Shown one piece after another: positions 2,531 to 24,961 of a stretch of 41,056 nt of DNA. Source of the stretch: a virus; UHGV virus genome UHGV-1383708. One strand, 5' to 3'. The notes under the pieces were generated by a model. It had not been told where the DNA came from. It was given only the letters and a program-made list of their open reading frames with translations, and did not search any database. Position numbers and translations under genes: made by a program. Numbering within the stretch: position 1 is the stretch's first letter; every line of letters starts with the position of its first letter.

Positions 2531-4831
2531 CTACTTCGTTAATATTTTAATCAAATCAATATTGCTTCCTTCTGATATTTCAGAAGGAACACTACCTGAT
2601 AACTTTATTGCATTAGATGAAATTCCTGAAACATCAGAAATCATATTTTTTGCCCCGCTAGTATATGCAACCTTAAAGTCATCATAAGGACCAGAATATG
2701 AAATTTCATCCTGGTTACGCACATATATAGTATTCCCGGACACCGATTTAACAACGTATCTATTTCTTAATATATTAACCTTAACATCAGATGCATCTTT
2801 TACATAACAGGTAACACCTGATGCTATATTTTCCATTTTGACATCAAGTGATGAATTAAACATCACAGCACCAGACCTGTGGATATTATGATCATCCATA
2901 TTTCTTCGAGGATACGCAGAACTATCCTTATAATATCTTCCGGTAAATCTGATATATTTGAAGGTAATTCCAGATGTATTACCACCCGACAGAATGACAA
3001 CCCTTATTGATTTTACTCCTCCTTTGTCGGTTATCCTAAACTTTGCATTACCGATGTTAGACTGGGTAGTAAAACGACTGTTTTCATCATCCCATGAAGC
3101 CCCTGGAAAACCAATCCCTTCAGGCTCATTTGTAATAACACTGCCATTCTCATCAATTCCATAAACCCTTATGCGGAATGCGCTGACATCAGAAGTAAAT
3201 GCAAACACATCGCCATTCCTGACGCTTATATCACCTGATTCCCAAATTGTCCTGAAGTTACGTCCAATAGCAAAACTACCATTAACAAGATGAATTAAAT
3301 TTCGCACACTTTTTACATCTGTAACATAATCAGGTGTATCTGAACTTCCCATATTAACGCTTGATAAAAATGGCGTTTTCTCACTCACTGAAAAAAGCGA
3401 CACTTCATTAGTTAGTTCTTCCTGAATATGATATACAGCATTTCCATTACCATTATCAGTGACAGTTACAAGATTGTTTGGGTTATATGGTTCATTGGTA
3501 TATGCAGAAAAGCTAAGCCATGATGCCTGAACAGAATTATTCCACGTATAACTACCAAAATTAATTCTTTGTGTGTCATCTGGGTTGTCTGGTCTGCGCT
3601 CAAAACGGAGTCCGTAAAAATGATTATTATTACCACGCTGAATGTCAATAACCCCAGTATTCTCCATCGTTCCACCAAAAAACTTGTTGTGATTATGTGA
3701 ATACGGATTATCAGCAATAATCACATTATTTGTCCTGTTTAGGTAAAACTTGTTTTCGTTTATCCAACCTCTAACTACACCAAGAAAATGAATTGTATCG
3801 ACCTTTTTCAGGTTAAAGGTTGAGTAGGCTATAGAATAATCTGTTTCATATACTGAATCATCAGAGTTTGCATATAACTGTAAGTAGTCGCAACGCTCAA
3901 TGTTAATATGCTGCCCTTTTGCCCCGATAATACGAATATCCGGTGTCGTTTCAGATGAAATACCAGAATTTCTGATAATCGTTCCGAAGTTTTGTCTTGG
4001 GTTGTTAGGGTTTGATGCATTCCCGCCAAGCAATACCCCTATCCCTGAGTGGGATATGGTAAAAACAGCATTGGTCATTTCGAGGCTGACATTACGAAGA
4101 TTTAATGTCTCCGTAATAATAAAATTACCTTCCGCTCGTAATGTTCTGGATGATTCTCGTGCATATTCTGCAGCCAGAATCAATGCAGATGTATCATCTG
4201 TTATACCATCGCCTTTTGCCCCAAAATCGCGAACACTAACGGTGTCTCTCATCTTATCCTGGAACGTTCGGTATACTGCTCCAGAACCATACTGAATAAA
4301 CCAACCAAAACCACCAATAACTCCGGCGATTGCAGCATCGACATAATTACGCATTGAGCGATTATTTACAGCGTCCTGCTCAAGTGATGGATCGGCAAGG
4401 TTAGATATTCTGTTTTGCTTTGCATCGTAATATTTTGCAAGCAAAGATGGTTTCATCAATGCACGTCTGAACCACCCAAAACATCGCTGGATCAGCATCG
4501 TCAGGTAGTCAAATGCATCCTCATGAACTTCGGGGAAAAATTTTCCCTGATTGCGAAGATCAGTCTCCTGCACCACATCAAGCACACGCTCTATCGTGAT
4601 TCGCCAGCCAGCAGCAAGCGGCGACGGAAGAACCACTGCACCGCCACTATAAGTTCCCGCCCCTGTTACCGTATAACCAGCATCCAGCACTAGTTTTGTA
4701 ACGTTACCGTTAAGGTCAGACACCTGAACAACCAGGTCGGATTTTTTGAAAATACGGAAGGTATACGGAAATGATGTCGTAACGCCGTTACCTGTGTATT
4801 CGTTGTGGTCAACTTCGGTTGAGACCGTCAT
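2531..4831 (-). CDS. Tailspike / receptor-binding protein
   Basis: 766 aa; N-terminus MTVSTEVDHNEYTGNGVTTSFPYTFRIFKKSDLVVQV recalled as conserved particle-binding domain; AT-rich Asn/Ser/Gly-rich C-terminal part; GGAGA RBS. Confidence 0.8.
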   Translation of the reverse strand: MTVSTEVDHNEYTGNGVTTSFPYTFRIFKKSDLVVQVSDLNGNVTKLVLDAGYTVTGAGTYSGGAVVLPSPLAAGWRITIERVLDVVQETDLRNQGKFFPEVHEDAFDYLTMLIQRCFGWFRRALMKPSLLAKYYDAKQNRISNLADPSLEQDAVNNRSMRNYVDAAIAGVIGGFGWFIQYGSGAVYRTFQDKMRDTVSVRDFGAKGDGITDDTSALILAAEYARESSRTLRAEGNFIITETLNLRNVSLEMTNAVFTISHSGIGVLLGGNASNPNNPRQNFGTIIRNSGISSETTPDIRIIGAKGQHINIERCDYLQLYANSDDSVYETDYSIAYSTFNLKKVDTIHFLGVVRGWINENKFYLNRTNNVIIADNPYSHNHNKFFGGTMENTGVIDIQRGNNNHFYGLRFERRPDNPDDTQRINFGSYTWNNSVQASWLSFSAYTNEPYNPNNLVTVTDNGNGNAVYHIQEELTNEVSLFSVSEKTPFLSSVNMGSSDTPDYVTDVKSVRNLIHLVNGSFAIGRNFRTIWESGDISVRNGDVFAFTSDVSAFRIRVYGIDENGSVITNEPEGIGFPGASWDDENSRFTTQSNIGNAKFRITDKGGVKSIRVVILSGGNTSGITFKYIRFTGRYYKDSSAYPRRNMDDHNIHRSGAVMFNSSLDVKMENIASGVTCYVKDASDVKVNILRNRYVVKSVSGNTIYVRNQDEISYSGPYDDFKVAYTSGAKNMISDVSGISSNAIKLSGSVPSEISEGSNIDLIKILTK

Positions 4832-4935
4832 GTTAAATCTCCAGATAGTCGCAGCACCCGTTGCGCCGCATATCTGGTTATTCTATTACCCAAAAAACCA
4901 TATATGGATAGAAAGACTGTGAATATGAATAGATA

Positions 4936-4950
4936 TTACCTTTCAGGTAA
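4936..4950. promoter_or_regulatory. Operator palindrome TTACC-TTTCA-GGTAA
   Basis: Perfect palindrome between tailspike start (4831) and small gene (5028). Confidence 0.6.
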
Positions 4951-4987
4951 TTTGCAAAACGTGCTGGATAGCAAACAAATTATTTGC

Positions 4988-5007
4988 TACTGTATAAATA
5001 TACAGTT
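4988..5007. promoter_or_regulatory. LexA (SOS) box
   Basis: TACTGTATAAATATACAGTT, CTGT-N8-ACAG with AT-rich core, close to E. coli consensus. Confidence 0.65.
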
Positions 5008-5027
5008 ATTGCATGGAGAAGATTAAG

Positions 5028-5285
5028 ATGCAGCAGTATCACTATCCACTGGAAGAGGGATTTACCGAAAGGATTCACACGCCGGGAGGCGTCAGGTCAC
5101 TGGTGGAGGGATCGCACTTGATGAAATTACTCCGGGATCTCGATAAGGATGGATTTAATGTCGATGGCCCACTTGCCGAACTGACTGCACTGATTAACTA
5201 CGTCACCAGCTCACAGATGTCTATGCAGGATCTGCAAACACATCTCGACTATTGTGCCGAACAATTACGAAAACAAACCAGATAA
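5028..5285 (+). CDS. Small protein homologous to the antirepressor shared C-terminal domain; candidate SOS-inducible antirepressor
   Basis: 86 aa; GGAGA RBS; GGVRSLVEGSHLMKLLRDLDKDGFNVDGPLAELTAL parallels SGVLGLTENSLLMNLLNQLQEDGHDVSGAAAELTTM; LexA box 20 nt upstream. Confidence 0.55.
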   Translation: MQQYHYPLEEGFTERIHTPGGVRSLVEGSHLMKLLRDLDKDGFNVDGPLAELTALINYVTSSQMSMQDLQTHLDYCAEQLRKQTR

Positions 5286-5316: not shown

Positions 5317-5331
5317 TTACCTTTTCGGTAA
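5317..5331. promoter_or_regulatory. Operator palindrome TTACC-TTTTC-GGTAA
   Basis: Perfect palindrome right after TTGAAA-N17-TTATAT promoter-like hexamers; nested in larger inverted repeat AGGAGTGC/GCACTCCT. Confidence 0.6.
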
Positions 5332-5425
5332 ATTTACATTGCACTCCTCTTGTGCCATAGTAATCGGGCACTGGCAAAATCCAGTGCCGGGATTGGTCTC
5401 CCGGATTACTACAGAGGCACATATG

Positions 5426-5445
5426 CCGCATAAGCGGTTTTTTTA
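5426..5445 (+). terminator. Intrinsic terminator downstream of small LexA-box gene
   Basis: CCGC-ataa-GCGG hairpin followed by TTTTTTT. Confidence 0.5.
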
Positions 5446-5598
5446 TGTGTAAAGCGCACCTATTCTATGGTGGGCTGTGTGGGGGCACCGAAAGGTGCGC
5501 CGGGTTCCTTTGTAGCCGGTAAGACCAACTCTGCACAGTTCACCACCATCTGATTGGTCTCAGCGGTGGTGATTAACCTAACTACAAAGGTGATCGCT

Positions 5599-6291
5599 AT
5601 GAATACCAAACCTTCCATCTTTTCCTTTGAGTCATCCTGCCAGATCCGTATGTTCATGATTGACGGAGAACCTTGGTTTGTCACCAAAGATGTGTGCAAT
5701 GCTTTGAATATTGATGTTACACAAGCGAGAAAACTTGATAAAAAAGGCTGGAACAAAAAGGGGCTGTATTCAATACAGACCCCTGGTGGAATACAAGAAC
5801 TATCCATCGTTTCAGAATCAGGTCTCTACATCCTTATTCTGCGTTGCAAAGAGGCAATGACTGAGGGAACGAGAGCATTCAGATTTCTTGAATGGGTTAC
5901 AGGTGAGGTTCTTCCTCAGATCCGCCGCACCGGAAGTTACATTAAAAACTCGCTCCCGCAGGAAGAACGCATAAAGATGGTTGCCGACCAGGTAGCCAAC
6001 GCCACAGCATCAGCAGTGATGCAGGCAATGAAGGTAGAGAACAAAACCTACAGCGCCCCACTGAAGCCCGGCTACCGCAGCCTGATTCATTCGCCGTCTG
6101 GTGTTCTCGGCCTGACGGAGAACTCACTGCTGATGAATCTGCTGAACCAGTTACAGGAAGACGGGCACGATGTATCGGGCGCGGCGGCGGAGCTGACCAC
6201 CATGTTCTGCTACATCGTCGGTGTGAGCAAATGCCTGCGTGATATCCAGACGCACGCGGAGTACATCAACGACAAAGCAGGGTTCTTCTGA
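5599..6291 (+). CDS. Bro-N domain antirepressor with shared C-terminal domain
   Basis: 230 aa; N-terminus IRMFMIDGEPWFVTKDVCNALNI typical of Bro-N; last 77 aa near-identical to antirepressor 7543-8481. Confidence 0.7.
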   Translation: MNTKPSIFSFESSCQIRMFMIDGEPWFVTKDVCNALNIDVTQARKLDKKGWNKKGLYSIQTPGGIQELSIVSESGLYILILRCKEAMTEGTRAFRFLEWVTGEVLPQIRRTGSYIKNSLPQEERIKMVADQVANATASAVMQAMKVENKTYSAPLKPGYRSLIHSPSGVLGLTENSLLMNLLNQLQEDGHDVSGAAAELTTMFCYIVGVSKCLRDIQTHAEYINDKAGFF

Positions 6292-6376
6292 CGGGCGGCG
6301 GCACAGGGATGTGCCTACAATTATCAATAATTGTTTACACTCGTTGCAGTTAAAAGCATTATACTCATGTTTAAAA

Positions 6377-6391
6377 TTACCCGATTGGTAA
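6377..6391. promoter_or_regulatory. Operator palindrome TTACC-CGATT-GGTAA
   Basis: Perfect palindrome just downstream of a TATACT -10-like hexamer. Confidence 0.6.
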
Positions 6392-6412
6392 AGTCGATTG
6401 GTTGAGGTTCAT

Positions 6413-6739
6413 ATGAGCAGAAGATATGTCAAGGAGCTGGCTATAGAGTCTGGCACCCCTTTGGGTATCGTTCCTGGCTCCAACTATGCCAAGGCTTTAA
6501 ACCGAGACTCTGTCGTCAAAGTTATATCAAGAGACATGAATATGGTCGGAGACGATCTCAGACGGTCAGAAAATCGTGTTTATGCTGAATATATAGTAAA
6601 GAACGGAAAAAAAATTGCAGCGCCTGCTGGCGGAAAATGGGCAATAGTGACAGGGAAAAACTCAAATGCAAGAGGAAAACCAGAAGCTAAAGGAATGTCC
6701 TTCGACAAATATGCAAAAATCTATTGGGCAACCAAGTGA
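6413..6739 (+). CDS. Hypothetical basic protein (108 aa), first gene of cargo cassette
   Basis: GAGGT RBS; operator palindrome 22 nt upstream; overlaps next gene in another frame. Confidence 0.45.
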   Translation: MSRRYVKELAIESGTPLGIVPGSNYAKALNRDSVVKVISRDMNMVGDDLRRSENRVYAEYIVKNGKKIAAPAGGKWAIVTGKNSNARGKPEAKGMSFDKYAKIYWATK

Positions 6740-7214
6740 TAACGAAGAAACTGAGTTCGAGGAAGTTGAGGAAGGGCTAAGTAACGAGATCATTCAACAC
6801 CCAGATGCCTTCACAAGAGTTCTTGATCGCCCTGAAATTCAGGAGATAGTTGTCGCTCACCATGCGTTTCAGGGTCCGCTTCCTCCCCCCTATCTGCTTC
6901 GCGGGTATCAGGATATTTTACCTGATGCCCCCGAACGCATCTTCCAGCTGACGGAGAAGGAGTTTGCTCACCGCCAGAAAATGGAGGAAAAGGCACTTGA
7001 CGGGGCTATTAATAGAGATAAACGTGGGCAGTGGTTTGGCCTGAGTGCAACTATTTTTACAGTAGCTTGTGCAACATTATTAGGTTTAACAGGTCATGAA
7101 GTTCTAGCTGGCACAGTGATCGGTACAGTTGTTGCAGTGGCTGGTATTTTCGTTCTTAGACAAAAACCAAGCATCAAGAAGAAATCTGAAGACAACAAAC
7201 CTGAAGAAAAGTAA
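6711..7214 (+). CDS. Acidic N-terminal / two-TM C-terminal protein, DUF2335-like (tentative)
   Basis: LPPPYLLRGYQDILPDAPERIFQLTEKEFAHRQ then hydrophobic hairpin WFGLSATIFTVACATLLGL...VIGTVVAVAGIFVL; start may be 6666. Confidence 0.5.
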   Translation: MQKSIGQPSDNEETEFEEVEEGLSNEIIQHPDAFTRVLDRPEIQEIVVAHHAFQGPLPPPYLLRGYQDILPDAPERIFQLTEKEFAHRQKMEEKALDGAINRDKRGQWFGLSATIFTVACATLLGLTGHEVLAGTVIGTVVAVAGIFVLRQKPSIKKKSEDNKPEEK

Positions 7215-7236
7215 GCCCGCGCTGCGGGCTTTTTTG
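7214..7236 (+). terminator. Intrinsic terminator after cargo gene pair
   Basis: AGCCCGC-gct-GCGGGCT hairpin followed by TTTTT. Confidence 0.7.
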
Positions 7237-7307
7237 TGGACGAAACAAAAGTCAGTGCTACACTCATTGACGCCACATTGAGGTGGCTTATAGATGGAAA
7301 TTTCACA

Positions 7308-7469
7308 ATGAAAAAAGCATTTGCTGCACTGTTCGTTTTGTTGTCTCTGGTAGCTTCAACTCAGGCCTTTGCCGGTCGTTGTCAGCACGACAGCGATACT
7401 GCCGCTGACGGCTCCCGCTGCGGTGGGCGTTCTGCGGATTCCCGCCCTGGCGGCGGTGGCATTCGTTAA
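7308..7469 (+). CDS. Candidate secreted micro-protein (53 aa) with signal peptide
   Basis: MKKAFAALFVLLSLVASTQAFA then Gly/Arg/Asp-rich 31-aa tail with two Cys; no clear RBS. Confidence 0.35.
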   Translation: MKKAFAALFVLLSLVASTQAFAGRCQHDSDTAADGSRCGGRSADSRPGGGGIR

Positions 7470-7475
7470 AAACAA

Positions 7476-7519
7476 GGCCGCGAAAGCGGCCTGTGACATG
7501 TCACGCTAGTTTCGTTTTG
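7476..7519. terminator. Bidirectional intrinsic terminator between convergent units
   Basis: GGCCGC-GAAA-GCGGCC hairpin with T-rich tracts on both sides. Confidence 0.55.
7493..7504. repeat. Perfect 12-bp palindrome GTGACATGTCAC (copy 1)
   Basis: Exact; immediately beside hairpin GGCCGC-gaaa-GCGGCC. Confidence 0.8.
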
Positions 7520-7542
7520 CACGTCCCTGTGCCGCCGTTCTG

Positions 7543-8481
7543 TCAGAAGAACCCTGCCTTGTCGTTGATGTATTCCGCGTGCGTCTGGATATCACGCAGG
7601 CATTTGCTCACACCGACGATGTAGCAGAACATGGTGGTCAGCTCCGCCGCCGCGCCCGATACATCGTGCCCGTCTTCCTGTAACTGGTTCAGCAGATTCA
7701 TCAGCAGTGAGTTCTCCGTCAGGCCGAGAACACCAGACGGCGAATGAATCAGGCTACGGTAGCCGGGCTTCAGTGGATAACCATAACATTTTGTCTGTGT
7801 TTTAATTGCCTCACGAAGCGCATCTAACATCTTGACTGCCACTTCATCATTCTCTGATGCAGATCCAGCAGGGAGATACTCCCCTTCAAGCGGAACCCGA
7901 GCAACAAGAGACAACGCTTCGGCAAATTGATCTTCACCAATTTCTTTGTACGAACAGCCAAAATGAGATTTCAGTGACGACCACATGGTGATCATCGCCT
8001 TAGCCTGTTTTTCTTTTGGCAGAGACTGACCGCGACTCATGACGAGTTGTTTAATGGCTTCCTGCTGTTCAGTTGTTATTTTACCCGGCAACGCCTTTTT
8101 AGCTTTGCGTGGGTTAACCACATGGCCTTTAGTCCAGTACTCGTAGAGCACATCGTCACACTCTTCCTGATACTGGATTACCTTGTCGCGGATTTCAGGG
8201 CGGACTTTGTTAGGGCTGATGCTGTTCAACCAAGCTGCCAATTTTCGTAAAGCCATACAAATCATGGCTTGCACCCCACCGGCAGAAGGTATGGTGATTT
8301 CCACCATACCCTTCGAGAAGCGTTGAGAAATCTTCTTATGTTGAGATTTCCAGTCTAGCCCCATTCCCTCAACGATAGGTTTCATTGGGGTATACGGTTC
8401 GCCGTTGTGATTGACAACATAAAGCTCTGCGCCGTGGAATGGCACGTTGATAGTAGATACTGCTGTTGCTATACTCGTCAT
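7543..8481 (-). CDS. Antirepressor (Ant-type N-terminal region plus shared C-terminal domain)
   Basis: 312 aa; downstream of arc-like gene as in P22 immI; last 77 aa near-identical to C-terminus of gene 5599-6291. Confidence 0.7.
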   Translation of the reverse strand: MTSIATAVSTINVPFHGAELYVVNHNGEPYTPMKPIVEGMGLDWKSQHKKISQRFSKGMVEITIPSAGGVQAMICMALRKLAAWLNSISPNKVRPEIRDKVIQYQEECDDVLYEYWTKGHVVNPRKAKKALPGKITTEQQEAIKQLVMSRGQSLPKEKQAKAMITMWSSLKSHFGCSYKEIGEDQFAEALSLVARVPLEGEYLPAGSASENDEVAVKMLDALREAIKTQTKCYGYPLKPGYRSLIHSPSGVLGLTENSLLMNLLNQLQEDGHDVSGAAAELTTMFCYIVGVSKCLRDIQTHAEYINDKAGFF

Positions 8482-8553
8482 GTCGTTAATTCCTATACGT
8501 AGTTTTACGATACTGAAGCCCTGACGGTCTGGCCACCGTGGGGCTTCGCTGTT
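8482..8553 (+). ncRNA. Candidate sar-like antisense RNA covering the antirepressor translation start
   Basis: Plus-strand TTGATA-N17-TATACT promoter at 8447-8475 inside ant 5' end; hairpin GAAGCCC...GGGCTTC plus T-tract at 8515-8556. Confidence 0.4.
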
Positions 8554-8721
8554 TTATGCCACGCTATTCTTCTCACCAGTGAGTCCATACACTTTCCTCA
8601 GCTGATAGATAATCTCTGTATTGAACTTTCGGCATTCTTTTTCGCCATTTCTTTCAATAGCTAACTTCACATCGTCCGGAAAACGAACTCGTCGTTGACA
8701 CATCTCTTTTGCTTTTTGCAT
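8554..8721 (-). CDS. Arc-like ribbon-helix-helix repressor
   Basis: 55 aa; AAGGAG RBS; RRVRFPDDVKLAIERNGEKECRKFNTEIIYQL resembles P22 Arc; upstream of antirepressor. Confidence 0.7.
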   Translation of the reverse strand: MQKAKEMCQRRVRFPDDVKLAIERNGEKECRKFNTEIIYQLRKVYGLTGEKNSVA

Positions 8722-8841
8722 TTCATATCTCCTTAGCCCCACCGTGGGGCAAAATAATTGTCACACCGTGCGTCATTGATGTCAAGCACACGGTGAGGCA
8801 TACTTCAATCATTGCAAGTAACTCAATATTTGGTGAAGAAC

Positions 8842-9273
8842 ATGAGCAGAGAAGATCCACAACTAAGGATCAGACTTCCCGTCGAAGTAAAAGAAAAAAT
8901 AGAAATTTCTGCAAAAGCCAATAAGCGATCAATGAACGCTGAAATAGTACAACGTCTTGACACCAGTTTTCTGAAAGATATTCATGAAGATGACGTAATT
9001 TCTGCTTATGAAGCAAAAATCATTGCAAACAATGCACGACATGAAATATCAAATATTATTTTCAAAAGAACCTTTAATGAAATTAATAAGAAAATAACAC
9101 TTGGACATACAAGTTTTTATATAAACCTTAATGACCTTGAACTGGAATCACTTGCAGATAATGATTACCAGATCATCTTTGAAAAAACATTTAATAAGCT
9201 CAATGAACTAGGTTACATCATCTGTGAAAACTCATGGGATGCAGATGGTTTTGGAATTGAAATACCTGAATAG
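8842..9273 (+). CDS. Mnt-like ribbon-helix-helix repressor with ~100-aa C-terminal extension
   Basis: MSREDPQLRIRLPVEVKEKIEISAKANKRSMNAEIVQRL resembles P22 Mnt N-terminus; divergent from arc-like gene. Confidence 0.65.
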   Translation: MSREDPQLRIRLPVEVKEKIEISAKANKRSMNAEIVQRLDTSFLKDIHEDDVISAYEAKIIANNARHEISNIIFKRTFNEINKKITLGHTSFYINLNDLELESLADNDYQIIFEKTFNKLNELGYIICENSWDADGFGIEIPE

Positions 9274-9363
9274 GAAGAGCAAAAGGCGTGTACATATTAC
9301 ACGTCTTTAATACAATTGAAAAACGCCACATTACTGATGTATGTTACAACAAGGAGCGATATT

Positions 9364-9927
9364 TTGAAAACCATATCTATATTAAAGGTTGCATTAGGCG
9401 TCGCTATTATTTTGACTCTCTCAATATTGTTTTATTTTTACCACAAACAAACTGCTATTGCTCTTGATAGTCACGCGGCAAACTCATTTTTCTCAGAGTA
9501 CATAGTGCCGCTATCAGGAAGCGGTATAACAAATAAATATACTGACTATGACATCAAATATGGAATTGATGATGGGGAGACTATTGTATTACATGTAATC
9601 ATTAAAAACCTAATGACAGTAAATAAAAATACAGACTTCAACGATAAAAATACAATACATCACAACAACAGCAAAACATTAATTTCTTATAGTAGCAACA
9701 TCTATACGGATAAATACCTAAAATACATATCAGAAGATACAATAAAAGAAACCCGCGAAAAGTTAAAAAACATATATTGTGCATCCGGCAGTTTTCACAA
9801 ATTATCGCCGCAAGAGCGTTTATTCTACGAAGCAAGAAAACAACGTAAGTCAATAATATTACATTATTATGCTGATTCAGGGGAGACACTCATATTTAAT
9901 ATTGGGGTTTCCCCTGAATCATGCTAA
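9364..9927 (+). CDS. AT-rich membrane-anchored protein (about 188 aa), sieA-like position
   Basis: AAGGAG RBS 7 nt before TTG; N-terminal TM ILKVALGVAIILTLSILFYFY; markedly low GC; downstream of Mnt-like gene; start could instead be 9316 or 9337. Confidence 0.5.
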   Translation: MKTISILKVALGVAIILTLSILFYFYHKQTAIALDSHAANSFFSEYIVPLSGSGITNKYTDYDIKYGIDDGETIVLHVIIKNLMTVNKNTDFNDKNTIHHNNSKTLISYSSNIYTDKYLKYISEDTIKETREKLKNIYCASGSFHKLSPQERLFYEARKQRKSIILHYYADSGETLIFNIGVSPESC

Positions 9928-9938
9928 AGGTGTTTAAC

Positions 9939-12900
9939 TCACCGCATCACCGGATCCACCTGGTTTATTAGTGGCGCAATCCAGAACAGGTTATTGCCGG
10001 GTATCAGGGTTCGGACATTATGCACAATACGATCACCGGCATCACCATTCAACACTCCTGCGGTCACATCAATGATGCTATCCGCAAGACCAAATGACGG
10101 TCCGAATAGAGATCCTACGAATCCACGACTGGCATACCTAGACTGTGTGCCAGTGCCAAATAAAGCCCCCAGCCCAACAGCACCACCAGTAGCCTTTTCA
10201 GCCATATTGTTATATTCCATCAATGGCCCAAGAATACCGGATCTATCTATACCCTCAAGCACCAGCTTCTCTGGTGACCAGTCAACATTTTTCCCTTTCG
10301 ATGCTTCTTTAAGCGCATAGACCAGTGAGCCAAGAGCAATCTGAAATGCAGTGCCATAATAAAATTGCGCAGTTCCTTCCTGTAACCCACCAAGTAGCGC
10401 ACGGTTGTATGAAGCCGTTGTGAATGATTTAAACTGAAATATCGTTCGCCCCATTGGAGTACTCGCCCATAAAGGTGTGTCACCAATACCGGGGGTAATG
10501 ATAGTGTTATTAACGTCTTTCAGAACCGCTGACTGGAATACTCCGGCAACGTACTGATCGTCCCATTTATCAAAGTTACCAATGTGCCATCCATCAATTA
10601 CCTCACCATGTTTCTCGAACTCACTGCGAATACGCGCAGCCATATTGTCGTTGATACCGAGTTTTGCCATGCGACGTGCAGAAAACGCACCAGACAAAAT
10701 ACCGTCTGACGTGAGCATTCCGTTCATGGATTTGTTTATGTCATTAAATCGATCCATGAGTGTCAGCTTGCCGAAGGCATCAGTAATTCGCTCCATTCCT
10801 GCTTCGACTGCTGTTGTCCTGGAAGAACTGTCAACAAGATCACCAATTGCACGAGAACGTGAATGTAGTACAGTTTCCAATCCAATCCCCATCTTCAACA
10901 TCTCTTCTTTGCTGGCCTTAAATGCCGGTGATTGGGATATCTGAGAAGCATAGCCTTTCATGGAGTTACGGAAACCATTAACCATAACCCCTCTGGCCAG
11001 ATCTGGAATAGCTGATACTGTCATTCCACCGAGTTTTGTCGTGAAGTTCACATCCCGCAGAAAAGCGCCAGCACGAACAAAAAACGAAGACGGGTCATCA
11101 GGCATACCATATGTACCAACAAGACGATCGCGTAATGCTGTTATGTCTCTGAGATCATTTGCTCTTGATTTTGAAAGTCTGGACTGTTCTTTCCGTAATT
11201 CCTTTTCGTACTTTCGCATTAATGAATCGAGTTTACCCTGAGGAACAACTTCACCATTGCTCTCATAACGTGCTTTCAGATTTGCCACACTTTCGTCATA
11301 TTTTGCCTTTATTTTTTCAGGCACTTCCCGTAACAGACTGTCATATTCGTCCTCAATTAATTGCAGACGCTCTGTCATAGTTCGTTTGCCAAATGTTCTC
11401 GTCAACTCAATTTCTGCTGCCGCTTCACGGATATGACGTTGTAGAACGTAATTCACATCACTTTCGAGATAATCCCTGATAAGACTATCAGGCACATTTA
11501 ATGTTCTTTCTTTCGTACTACCTGCGGCTTTTACAGAAAATACGCTGACAAAATCCTGTGGAACCTTAGCACCAGTAATTTTATTAATTACGATATCCGC
11601 TGCAATTTCAGCATCCTCAGGATCCAGTGTTTTATTGCCTCTCGACCACCAGTCAACCAAAATACGTCGAAATTTATCGCGTTCACTGATTATTTTTCCA
11701 ACTTTATATATACGTGGGAAATAGCTTGCCTGGCCTAATGCTTTCAGTTCTTCATCTGGCGGCAATAAACCAAGCTTTTGCATTTCAACCTTCACCCGAT
11801 TTAATACAGTTCGCATCGCCTGCGCCGTTTCCTGAACAACAGGATTAGCATGCACATCACCGCTTCGCATAGCATTCCCAACCTGCTGACGAAATGAATC
11901 AAAACTCATGTCACCACCATCAGCTTTATACTTTGCGTATGCCTGTTTATTTCCGACAACAACAGCAGCTTCTTCACGCTGCCATCCACGTGTACGGGTT
12001 TCTACAGCTACCGGTGTTTCAATCCCCCTTTCATTTCCTTTAAGGGTGAAATTATTTTCGGCTAACTCCAGCGTTGTTTTTCGCACTGTCTTGGACGGAG
12101 ACTCCATTAACCTTGTCAAAGGAGTAAGATAGCTCCCTGCTTTCCATGCAGCCTTTCCAACCACCCCACCGGAAACAGGGGTTAAATCATCCAGAGTCGC
12201 TGTATCAATTTTCATAGCACCAACACTACCACCATCAGAAAGCGAAGCGGCAGCCCTGTCAGTCGCTGATGTAATGCTCATATTATCAAGAGCATCAGCA
12301 ACCTCACGCGTGGCTGCAGCCCGGACGGATGGCGAAAGCGCAACACCAGCACTGGCAAACACGCCGCTCATCATCGCACCCGCTGCAATGTGAGCGGCAC
12401 TTTCACCCCATGAGCGTGTTATTTGCTGATTATTCAGCACAACCTCGCTTAATGCTGTACCGGCTGCACCAATCGCAATCTGTGAGCCAATACGCGCCAG
12501 TGCCCCTCCTTGAGCACCGGGGATAAACATTGACGCAACAGTAACCGGATCCATTCCCGCAGCAATACTGGCAAGGGTTCCAACTACGCCAGCATCAGAC
12601 AATAAACGTCTGTCTTCATTTTCATCATCTATCTGCTGCTTAATCCACGCCGTTTCCTCTGGCGATCGGGAATCTGCAAATTTCGCCCCCCAGTATTCAT
12701 AACCGTGCAACTCATTTTTATCAGCATATGGGTTATAACCTTCGACCGGTTCAAACTGTCTGGCTGGTCGGAAAAAACCAGCCAGAATATTGTTCTGTCG
12801 CATTGCAGCCCCCCATACGGAAGGCTCCGGTGGCAATGGCTCAGGATTAGCCCCTTCCGGAAGGGCAACATCAAACCCAGTTTGTTCCGGCAAAACATTA

Positions 12901-12953
12901 CCTGACGGGATCAGTCCGTTATTAAGATCTTCAGCTTGTGCATAAACTGGCAT
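9939..12953 (-). CDS. Large internal virion/ejection protein (1004 aa)
   Basis: Last gene of structural block; start abuts upstream stop. Confidence 0.6.
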   Translation of the reverse strand: MPVYAQAEDLNNGLIPSGNVLPEQTGFDVALPEGANPEPLPPEPSVWGAAMRQNNILAGFFRPARQFEPVEGYNPYADKNELHGYEYWGAKFADSRSPEETAWIKQQIDDENEDRRLLSDAGVVGTLASIAAGMDPVTVASMFIPGAQGGALARIGSQIAIGAAGTALSEVVLNNQQITRSWGESAAHIAAGAMMSGVFASAGVALSPSVRAAATREVADALDNMSITSATDRAAASLSDGGSVGAMKIDTATLDDLTPVSGGVVGKAAWKAGSYLTPLTRLMESPSKTVRKTTLELAENNFTLKGNERGIETPVAVETRTRGWQREEAAVVVGNKQAYAKYKADGGDMSFDSFRQQVGNAMRSGDVHANPVVQETAQAMRTVLNRVKVEMQKLGLLPPDEELKALGQASYFPRIYKVGKIISERDKFRRILVDWWSRGNKTLDPEDAEIAADIVINKITGAKVPQDFVSVFSVKAAGSTKERTLNVPDSLIRDYLESDVNYVLQRHIREAAAEIELTRTFGKRTMTERLQLIEDEYDSLLREVPEKIKAKYDESVANLKARYESNGEVVPQGKLDSLMRKYEKELRKEQSRLSKSRANDLRDITALRDRLVGTYGMPDDPSSFFVRAGAFLRDVNFTTKLGGMTVSAIPDLARGVMVNGFRNSMKGYASQISQSPAFKASKEEMLKMGIGLETVLHSRSRAIGDLVDSSSRTTAVEAGMERITDAFGKLTLMDRFNDINKSMNGMLTSDGILSGAFSARRMAKLGINDNMAARIRSEFEKHGEVIDGWHIGNFDKWDDQYVAGVFQSAVLKDVNNTIITPGIGDTPLWASTPMGRTIFQFKSFTTASYNRALLGGLQEGTAQFYYGTAFQIALGSLVYALKEASKGKNVDWSPEKLVLEGIDRSGILGPLMEYNNMAEKATGGAVGLGALFGTGTQSRYASRGFVGSLFGPSFGLADSIIDVTAGVLNGDAGDRIVHNVRTLIPGNNLFWIAPLINQVDPVMR

Positions 12954-24946: not shown

Positions 24947-24961
24947 TTACCCTTCAGGTAA
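24947..24961. promoter_or_regulatory. Operator palindrome TTACC-CTTCA-GGTAA
   Basis: Perfect palindrome 17 nt downstream of a TTGACA hexamer (24925-24930). Confidence 0.55.

Follow-up and report, generated by a model that had tools for sequence, protein, structure and literature searches.

The window analysed here is the viral genome UHGV-1383708, a stretch of 41,056 nucleotides (nt) that represents an epsilon15/phiV10-like (Uetakevirus-type) prophage of Escherichia coli, with the phages TL-2011b, EC.W1-9, vB_EcoP_ZX5 and phiV10 as its nearest phage relatives. Our interest concerns a region flanked by a tail-fibre gene (2531-4831, minus strand) on one side and a large virion gene (9939-12953, minus strand) on the other, in which two antirepressor genes converge on a short cargo segment and form a long inverted repeat with their 3' ends. 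The gene on the left (5554-6291, plus strand) encodes a Bro-N protein (Pfam Bro-N, E = 2e-13, residues 31-121), which in RefSeq relatives begins at the ATG at 5599 and then has 230 amino acids. The gene on the right (7543-8481, minus strand) encodes a protein of 312 amino acids with a P22_AR_N domain (Pfam, E = 6e-45). The left arm of the repeat (6058-6292, plus strand) consists of 77 codons, the stop codon and one additional base, and the right arm (7542-7776, minus strand) is the 3' end of the P22_AR_N gene.

Pairwise alignment of 6058-6292 with the reverse complement of 7542-7776 gave 235 nt with 3 mismatches, corresponding to 98.7% DNA identity. This agrees with a preliminary description of the locus, which had placed the repeat at 6058-6291 and 7543-7776 with about three mismatches; a match at 232 of 235 positions cannot be due to chance. 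The mismatches at 6078, 6261 and 6276 are all located at third codon positions and are all synonymous, and the 77-residue peptides encoded by the two arms are identical. A repeat search identified a longer inverted pair (6023-6292 and 7542-7811) of 270 nt, 93% complementary and with a spacing of 1249 nt, and the similarity between the two genes drops to background within at most about 35 nt upstream of 6058. The guanine-plus-cytosine content is 57% in the arms and about 46% in the flanks. As previously proposed, the N-terminal domains are unrelated: Pfam assigned one to Bro-N and the other to P22_AR_N, and the BLASTP alignment of the two proteins was confined to the last approximately 101 residues. 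The same layout was observed in many independent complete genomes as well as in phage TL-2011b, and the repeat is therefore not an assembly artefact. A transposon-like interpretation of the inverted repeats was ruled out, since a transposase is absent and the arms are in-frame coding sequences under purifying selection. Another repeat of 20 nt (5217-5236 and 7858-7877) was regarded as a chance similarity.

The 85-residue peptide that ends at the stop codon of the arm matched a single entity in PDB, namely 5D50, 'Anti-repressor protein', with the arm domain aligned to residues 3-79 of the 86 residues in chain E (E = 5e-15). An even stronger match to the same chain (phmmer, E = 1.7e-47, residues 3-85 of 86) was obtained for a free open reading frame (ORF) at 5028-5285 (plus strand; 90 amino acids if the start is at 5013), which encodes an antirepressor of 85 amino acids. 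This protein is about 90% identical to the Ant protein of SPC32H (75 of 83 aligned residues), a Salmonella epsilon15-like phage, and represents its orthologue. The arm domain is 42% identical to the product of the free ORF and both belong to phrog_450. Judged from these matches, each arm is a complete Ant-type domain, and the window contains three such domains in total. The preliminary description had included neither the identity of the shared domain, SPC32H-type Ant, nor the third, free copy at 5028-5285. The nearest stand-alone relatives of the arm domain were found in Klebsiella and Raoultella, with 62-64% identity. A search for homologous proteins with the 85-residue arm peptide retrieved only 21 proteins, mostly short, and no family match for the arm was obtained in Pfam, NCBIfam or PADLOC.

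The presumed target of the Ant domain is also present in the window. The gene for the master repressor of the prophage, Rep, is located at 35068-35652 (plus strand) and its product matches chain A of 5D50, the SPC32H repressor (E = 4e-42 over residues 1-190). The SPC32H Rep-Ant antirepression system was reportedly characterized by Kim and Ryu in 2013 and by Kim et al. in 2016, with the structures 5D50 and 5D4Z in PDB. The Rep protein of the window has accumulated far more substitutions relative to SPC32H Rep than the free Ant has relative to SPC32H Ant. Since Ant is conserved while Rep has diverged, the recognition between the two may tolerate divergence. The free ant gene is preceded, at a distance of about 20 nt, by a LexA (SOS) box, TACTGTATAAATATACAGTT (4988-5007, plus strand), with a perfect CTGT-N8-ACAG motif at 4990-5005. 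The SPC32H/186 paradigm, as presented in PMC7380047, suggests a regulatory role for this box. According to the same source, which cites the primary work, such Salmonella prophages are induced through LexA-controlled synthesis of Ant, and PMC9638917, another citing paper, portrays SPC32H Ant as a tetramer that dissociates the tetramer formed by Rep. The window resembles the SPC32H system in that it contains orthologues of Ant, with its LexA box, and of Rep, as well as arm domains that are homologous to Ant and of the same fold. The difference lies in the arm copies, which occur as C-terminal fusions to larger proteins, share only 42% identity with the free Ant and have no LexA box. The arrangement of a stand-alone gene behind a LexA box is thus specific to the free copy, whereas the two arm copies are the C-terminal domains of proteins of 230/245 and 312 amino acids, situated behind controls of the RNA or Arc type.

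In the Bro-N gene, which was assigned to PHROG anti-repressor families and is labelled 'BRO-N domain-containing protein' in related genomes, the N-terminal part (5599-6057) is followed directly by the Ant domain (6058-6291). The gene is preceded by a leader (5368-5550, plus strand) that contains an isrK RNA at 5368-5444 (Rfam RF01394, 74.7 bits, gathering score 50) and a C4 antisense RNA at 5463-5550 (RF01695, 78.6 bits, gathering score 45), with a hairpin of the terminator type at 5425-5438. The fold of the leader yielded a z-score of -7.9 against shuffled sequences. A target similar to c4-a1b1 at 5355-5407 scored 39.9 bits, which is below the gathering score of 46.7. An ORF of 28 codons (5467-5553) within the C4 region is in the same frame as the Bro-N ORF, with one TGA between them; it stops 45 nt before the ATG at 5599 and does not overlap the start codon. 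The isrK and C4 RNAs are likewise located upstream of the antirepressor gene in the relatives. Both the isrK-C4 tandem immediately before the Bro-N gene and the short ORF inside the C4 region resemble immI of P1/P7 (c4-icd-ant) and the isrK-orf45-anrP operon of Gifsy-1, described in PMC4825925, from which the window differs in the a1b1 target below the gathering score and in the short ORF without overlap with an ATG. The arm in phiV10 is only 90.6% identical and contains an indel; the annotated Bro-N gene stops early and a separate ORF of 90 nt covers the remainder. From its sequence, the fused Ant domain of phiV10 (4060-4278 of the extracted locus) is probably disrupted.

At 197 of 222 aligned residues (89%), the P22_AR_N protein is identical to the Ant protein of the P22-like phage CUS-3. 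Agreement is almost complete as far as about residue 203 and declines beyond it, and an SPC32H-type Ant domain takes the place of the C-terminus; the Pfam search of this protein gave no C-terminal domain family. The assembly collection contains the exact protein in 1,145 indexed blocks. Within the phage collection, the DNA for its N-terminal part was present in more than 100 records of Stx, lambdoid and P22-like phages without the arm, and the arm was present in only 17 records, mostly of epsilon15/phiV10-like phages. A small Arc-like repressor gene (8554-8742, minus strand; PHROG Arc-like repressor) is located upstream and is annotated as 'Arc-like repressor' in TL-2011b. A sar-like antisense RNA (8483-8550, plus strand; Rfam RF00262, 44.8 bits, gathering score 43) occupies the gap between arc and ant, and the same place in TL-2011b. 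Promoter-like sites were identified beside the sar-like RNA (8447-8475, plus strand) and beside the Arc-like gene (8785-8757, minus strand), and a regulator of the Arc family, Mnt-like, is encoded divergently at 8812-9273 (plus strand; Pfam Arc, E = 1e-14). The P22_AR_N domain, the upstream Arc-like gene, the sar-like RNA and the divergent Arc-family regulator are all as in immI of P22 (mnt, arc, ant and sar RNA), and the location beside the tail-fibre gene matches that in the P22-like phage CUS-3. The differences are that the C-terminal third of Ant has been swapped for an SPC32H-type domain and that the carrier phage is epsilon15-like rather than P22-like.

The arm was identified at 582 places in 469 of 5,426 complete E. 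coli genomes, and about one-fifth of the carriers therefore have at least two copies. Of 471 matching records, all but one (470) had arm DNA with 95% identity or more, whatever the N-terminus, and a first set of 27 arm copies contained 29 variable sites with only 2 non-synonymous changes. The polymorphisms were patchily shared among the arms of Bro-N, a second type of Bro-N, P22_AR_N and ORF6N genes, and fusions of the arm module to AntA/AntB also exist. The N-terminal segments of nominally the same gene differed by up to about 15% or were unrelated, whereas the arms were 94-100% identical. These sequence patterns indicate a module that is homogeneous, recombines and is subject to strong purifying selection.

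The preliminary description had suggested domain shuffling or gene conversion between the antirepressors. The former holds, given the shared C-terminal domain on unrelated N-termini. For the latter, we compared 18 genomes with two arms, in which the mean number of mismatches was 8.9 within genomes (range 3-14) and 7.9 between genomes. Since arms from the same genome were no closer to each other than arms from different genomes, there is no general concerted evolution inside genomes, and gene conversion was dismissed as a general cause. The near-identity would rather reflect a homogeneous pool of recombining modules, more than local gene conversion. An alternative is that the near-identity in this particular prophage results mainly from recent gene conversion between its two arms. 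The pair in the window, with 3 mismatches, is the closest among the 18 genomes with two arms, and in only about 7% of the comparisons between genomes were the arms as close. Furthermore, its P22_AR_N arm lacks the 5' variants that are usual for P22_AR_N arms (6061T, 6069A, 6081T and 6099G) and retains the 3' variants 6261A and 6276G, which resembles a conversion tract. However, any two E. coli arms are already 94-100% identical, the comparison within and between the 18 genomes runs against conversion, and an exchange with another phage could yield the same pattern. We therefore consider recent local conversion improbable as the main source of the near-identity.

The DNA between the arms (6293-7541, plus strand) was delineated from ORFs, Pfam, PHROGs and a scan for promoters and terminators, and represents a cargo slot. 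It contains g113 (6398-6739, plus strand), a gene for a DUF2335 membrane protein (6666-7214, plus strand; Pfam DUF2335) and g53 (7308-7469, plus strand), which encodes a signal-peptide-like protein of 53 amino acids. The terminator scan identified a bidirectional terminator at 7213-7231 and a terminator for the minus-strand ant gene at 7475-7492. No matches to g113 and g53 were found in Pfam, NCBIfam or PADLOC, the DUF2335 domain being the only Pfam match in the cargo, and no model of a defence system matched the cargo of the window. The g53 protein was retrieved from 18,473 blocks in the assembly collection. In the relatives, the cargo has been swapped for at least 8 other gene sets, and the contents of the slot include g113 with DUF2335, a YafO-family toxin, DUF4760, and genes for proteins of 62 and 110, 210, 147 and 55, and 167, 286 and 69 amino acids.

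A palindrome of 15 nt, TTACC-N5-GGTAA, occurs 10 times in the window versus 0.02 times expected by chance. One copy is located at 4936, beside the LexA box in the promoter region of the free ant gene, another at 5317 in the promoter of the isrK/C4 cassette, and a third, TTACCCGATTGGTAA (6377-6391), is located before the cargo and is overlapped by promoter-like sites at 6334-6377. Three copies flank rep (34998, 35710 and 35772) and the other four are at 24947, 28112, 32605 and 32667. In most loci of relatives with other cargo, the palindrome is located 70-85 nt downstream of the co-oriented arm. Based on this distribution, the palindrome is likely to be an operator for Rep. If so, the cargo and the ant cassettes fall under the master repressor, and the series of arm, operator/promoter, cargo, g53 and terminators would constitute a conserved frame within which only the cargo ORFs are exchanged, which may explain why the cargo keeps a single orientation.

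It had also been proposed that the repeat provides a substrate for RecA-dependent inversion of the cargo without disruption of either gene. On this alternative, RecA- or RecT-mediated recombination at the 235-bp arms flips the 1.25-kb cargo, which would change which of the antirepressor transcripts enters the cargo and which meets a terminator. Repeats of 235 bp at 98.7% identity offer ample homology, and the window encodes both RecT (37048-38016, plus strand; Pfam RecT) and a PDDEXK-type exonuclease (36257-37078, plus strand; Pfam DUF3799/PDDEXK), so that homologous exchange could also proceed without RecA. With identical peptides encoded by the arms, both proteins would stay intact after an inversion. 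Moreover, the terminator at 7475-7492 serves the minus-strand gene only, and a flip would therefore swap the 3' contexts of the two genes.

To what extent such inversions have occurred was estimated by searching the 5,426 genomes for native junctions and for synthetic flipped junctions, counting genomes with at least 80% coverage. The native left junction (Bro-N, arm and g113) was found in 49 genomes and the native right junction (DUF2335/g53, arm and P22_AR_N) in 24 genomes, whereas the flipped right junction (reverse complement of g113, arm and P22_AR_N) was found in none. The flipped left junction (Bro-N, arm and the reverse complement of the g53 end) was found in 5 genomes, in which this Bro-N N-terminus thus adjoins the g53 side. 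We also sampled 15 loci with Bro-N and P22_AR_N genes at opposite ends, obtained by lookups of the exact P22_AR_N and g53 proteins together with loci fetched earlier; the cargo was co-oriented with the Bro-N gene in all 15, which represent at least 8 cargo sets. No sign of cargo inversion was seen in these 15 loci.

Among the five carriers of the flipped left junction, three genomes (MS 196-1, CE0007a and MS8345) were inspected in detail. In MS 196-1, the entire block from g113 and DUF2335 to g53 is turned towards the Bro-N gene, and the second arm is that of an ORF6N gene; no un-inverted counterpart of this locus was found in the 5,426 genomes. In CE0007a and MS8345, it is the Bro-N gene that occupies the far side, where it adjoins a truncated P22_AR_N pseudogene. 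All three have two isrK/C4 cassettes in inverted orientation, which form an outer inverted repeat of 106-136 nt. A simple flip-flop was rejected for these loci on account of the missing flipped right junctions, the lack of a counterpart to MS 196-1, the different partner genes (a second antirepressor unlike that of the window) and the second, outer repeat. The rearrangements are real, yet from their sequences they do not correspond to a simple flip between the arms of a locus like that in the window, and the rearranged loci look like products of larger inversions. As a side observation, the inverted repeats in the three genomes are nested, with outer leaders of 106-136 nt and inner arms of 257-504 nt, and truncated P22_AR_N or Rha pseudogenes are located beside them.

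Nor was a dedicated recombinase for such a switch identified, in line with the preliminary description. Neither a serine invertase nor Rci was found in the domain scan, in which some small ORFs were left unscanned, and a tblastn search of the window with a Hin sequence gave no match; the only recombinase-type genes detected were those for RecT with its exonuclease and for a tyrosine integrase with an Arm-binding domain (39561-40811). Known invertible segments (Mu G, P1 C, e14 P and Salmonella H) and the R64 shufflon are similar in having inverted repeats around a gene-bearing segment, in the location of repeats in the 3' ends of genes and in a region adjoining a tail-fibre gene. They differ in their invertase genes, in crossover sites of about 26 bp as compared with coding repeats of 235 bp here, and in their alternative C-termini, which in the window are identical so that a flip changes no protein; here, furthermore, a single orientation is seen among the relatives. 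The cargo also seems to possess its own promoter and operator. An inversion at the arms is physically possible and a reasonable proposal, but the comparative data provide no support for it in this gene pair, and we consider an invertible cargo switch, including the proposed change in transcript read-through and termination, very improbable. Only evidence from sequencing reads would justify treating the inverted repeat as an invertible element.

Taken together, we think it probable that the repeat represents a lineage-specific Ant effector domain shared by differently controlled antirepressors, and that it is a by-product of modularity. Lysogeny would be controlled by an SPC32H-type Rep protein that is inactivated by the small protein Ant, and the Ant domain is carried three times, where each copy would be under a different classical control. 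The first copy is the free Ant behind the LexA box, which would provide an SOS input. The second is the C-terminal domain of the Bro-N protein behind an isrK/C4 leader of the type in P1 immI and Gifsy-1 isrK-anrP, and the third is the C-terminal domain of the P22_AR_N protein, which belongs to an arc-sar-ant cassette of the P22 immI type, accompanied by a divergent Arc/Mnt-like regulator. The latter two would be imported control cassettes, each provided with the effector domain appropriate to this lineage of phages. Since these cassettes are arranged tail to tail and have identical 3' ends, a 235-bp inverted repeat surrounds the intervening DNA, and it would be the outcome of modular design rather than a switch. 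Purifying selection would hold the Ant-domain protein almost invariant, and frequent homologous exchange among epsilon15-like phages would hold the arm DNA at 94-100% identity on every N-terminus, while the arm, the downstream promoter/operator and the g53-terminator end would serve as a conserved frame for swaps of the cargo. In this scheme the fused domains are predicted to bind Rep, the N-terminal domains would not be the determinant of specificity, and the three cassettes would respond to different signals.

Several observations weigh against this scheme. At 42% identity to the resident free Ant, the fused domains could target another repressor, and their closest stand-alone relatives are from Klebsiella and Raoultella. 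The arm pair of the window is the closest of the 18, and a recent local conversion tract in this prophage is plausible. Bro-N is joined to the opposite side of the cargo in 5 genomes, showing that recombination at or around the arms alters the structure at some frequency, and minority inversion isomers cannot be seen in consensus assemblies.

The first of these points leads to an alternative in which the fused Ant domains act not on the resident Rep but on the repressors of other, heteroimmune epsilon15-like prophages, resulting in cross-induction or anti-immunity. Beyond the low identity to the free Ant and the closer stand-alone relatives in other genera, it is noteworthy that the Bro-N gene of phiV10 is annotated as 'putative anti-immunity protein', and that antirepressors acting in trans between prophages are reportedly documented for Gifsy and Fels (PMC3121763), as summarised in PMC7380047. 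On the other hand, the arm is almost confined to epsilon15-like phages in the phage collection and nearly invariant across prophages, and the approximately 90% conservation of Ant alongside a more diverged Rep indicates that recognition may tolerate divergence. We regard action on foreign repressors as unlikely, although less so than local conversion or a cargo switch, and we judge the corollary, that the free LexA-controlled Ant alone serves self-induction, to be unlikely to the same degree.

The reading of the repeat as a shared effector domain can be extended, tentatively and with somewhat less than even confidence, to a model in which the Ant domain acts as a portable 'warhead' specific to the lineage and is the sole determinant of repressor specificity. 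Bro-N, P22_AR_N, ORF6N and AntA would then be interchangeable front ends of a three-input switch onto one Rep, and the arm, operator and g53 would delimit a recombination slot with Rep-controlled cargo. If this is true, the three inputs are SOS via LexA, the isrK/C4 RNA and Arc/Mnt/sar, and the cargo is exchanged by homologous recombination and at times re-linked to the other antirepressor.

The repeat is best explained as belonging to known phenomena, namely antirepressor domain shuffling and phage mosaicism. Domain shuffling among phage regulators with Bro-N, KilA-N, ORF6N and AntA domains was reportedly recognized by Iyer, Koonin and Aravind in 2002. The similarities consist of a single C-terminal module on Bro-N (at least 2 sequence types), P22_AR_N, ORF6N and AntA/AntB, and of a sharp breakpoint at the domain boundary. 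The differences are that both partners are located in one genome, tail to tail and with 98.7% DNA identity, and that the shared module is tied to a repressor-binding protein of solved structure. What is added here is the identification of this module as SPC32H-type Ant and of a third, free copy that adjoins the repeat. In large antirepressors of phages (Bro-N, P22 Ant, ORF6N and AntA types), the roles of the N-terminal and C-terminal halves are poorly defined; the C-terminal 77 residues are now tied to a crystallised Rep-binding protein and occur on at least 4 kinds of N-terminus, which gives the testable prediction that repressor specificity resides in the C-terminal module. The layout suggests a three-input circuit, in which a single prophage wires LexA, a P1-type C4 RNA and a P22-type Arc/sar onto one effector, and bears on how signals are integrated in prophage induction, the inverted repeat being a side effect of the cassette layout.

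Two minor observations concern the surroundings of the cassettes. An ORF for 203 amino acids (9316-9927) beside the Arc/Mnt-like regulator, assigned to phrog_8033, gave a very weak TIR-like (ThsB) match in PADLOC (E = 0.006). In one prophage (GCA_013817105.1, locus 4001-5271), which has no Bro-N cassette and no cargo, the gene for the P22_AR_N-Ant fusion is directly convergent with the free ant gene.

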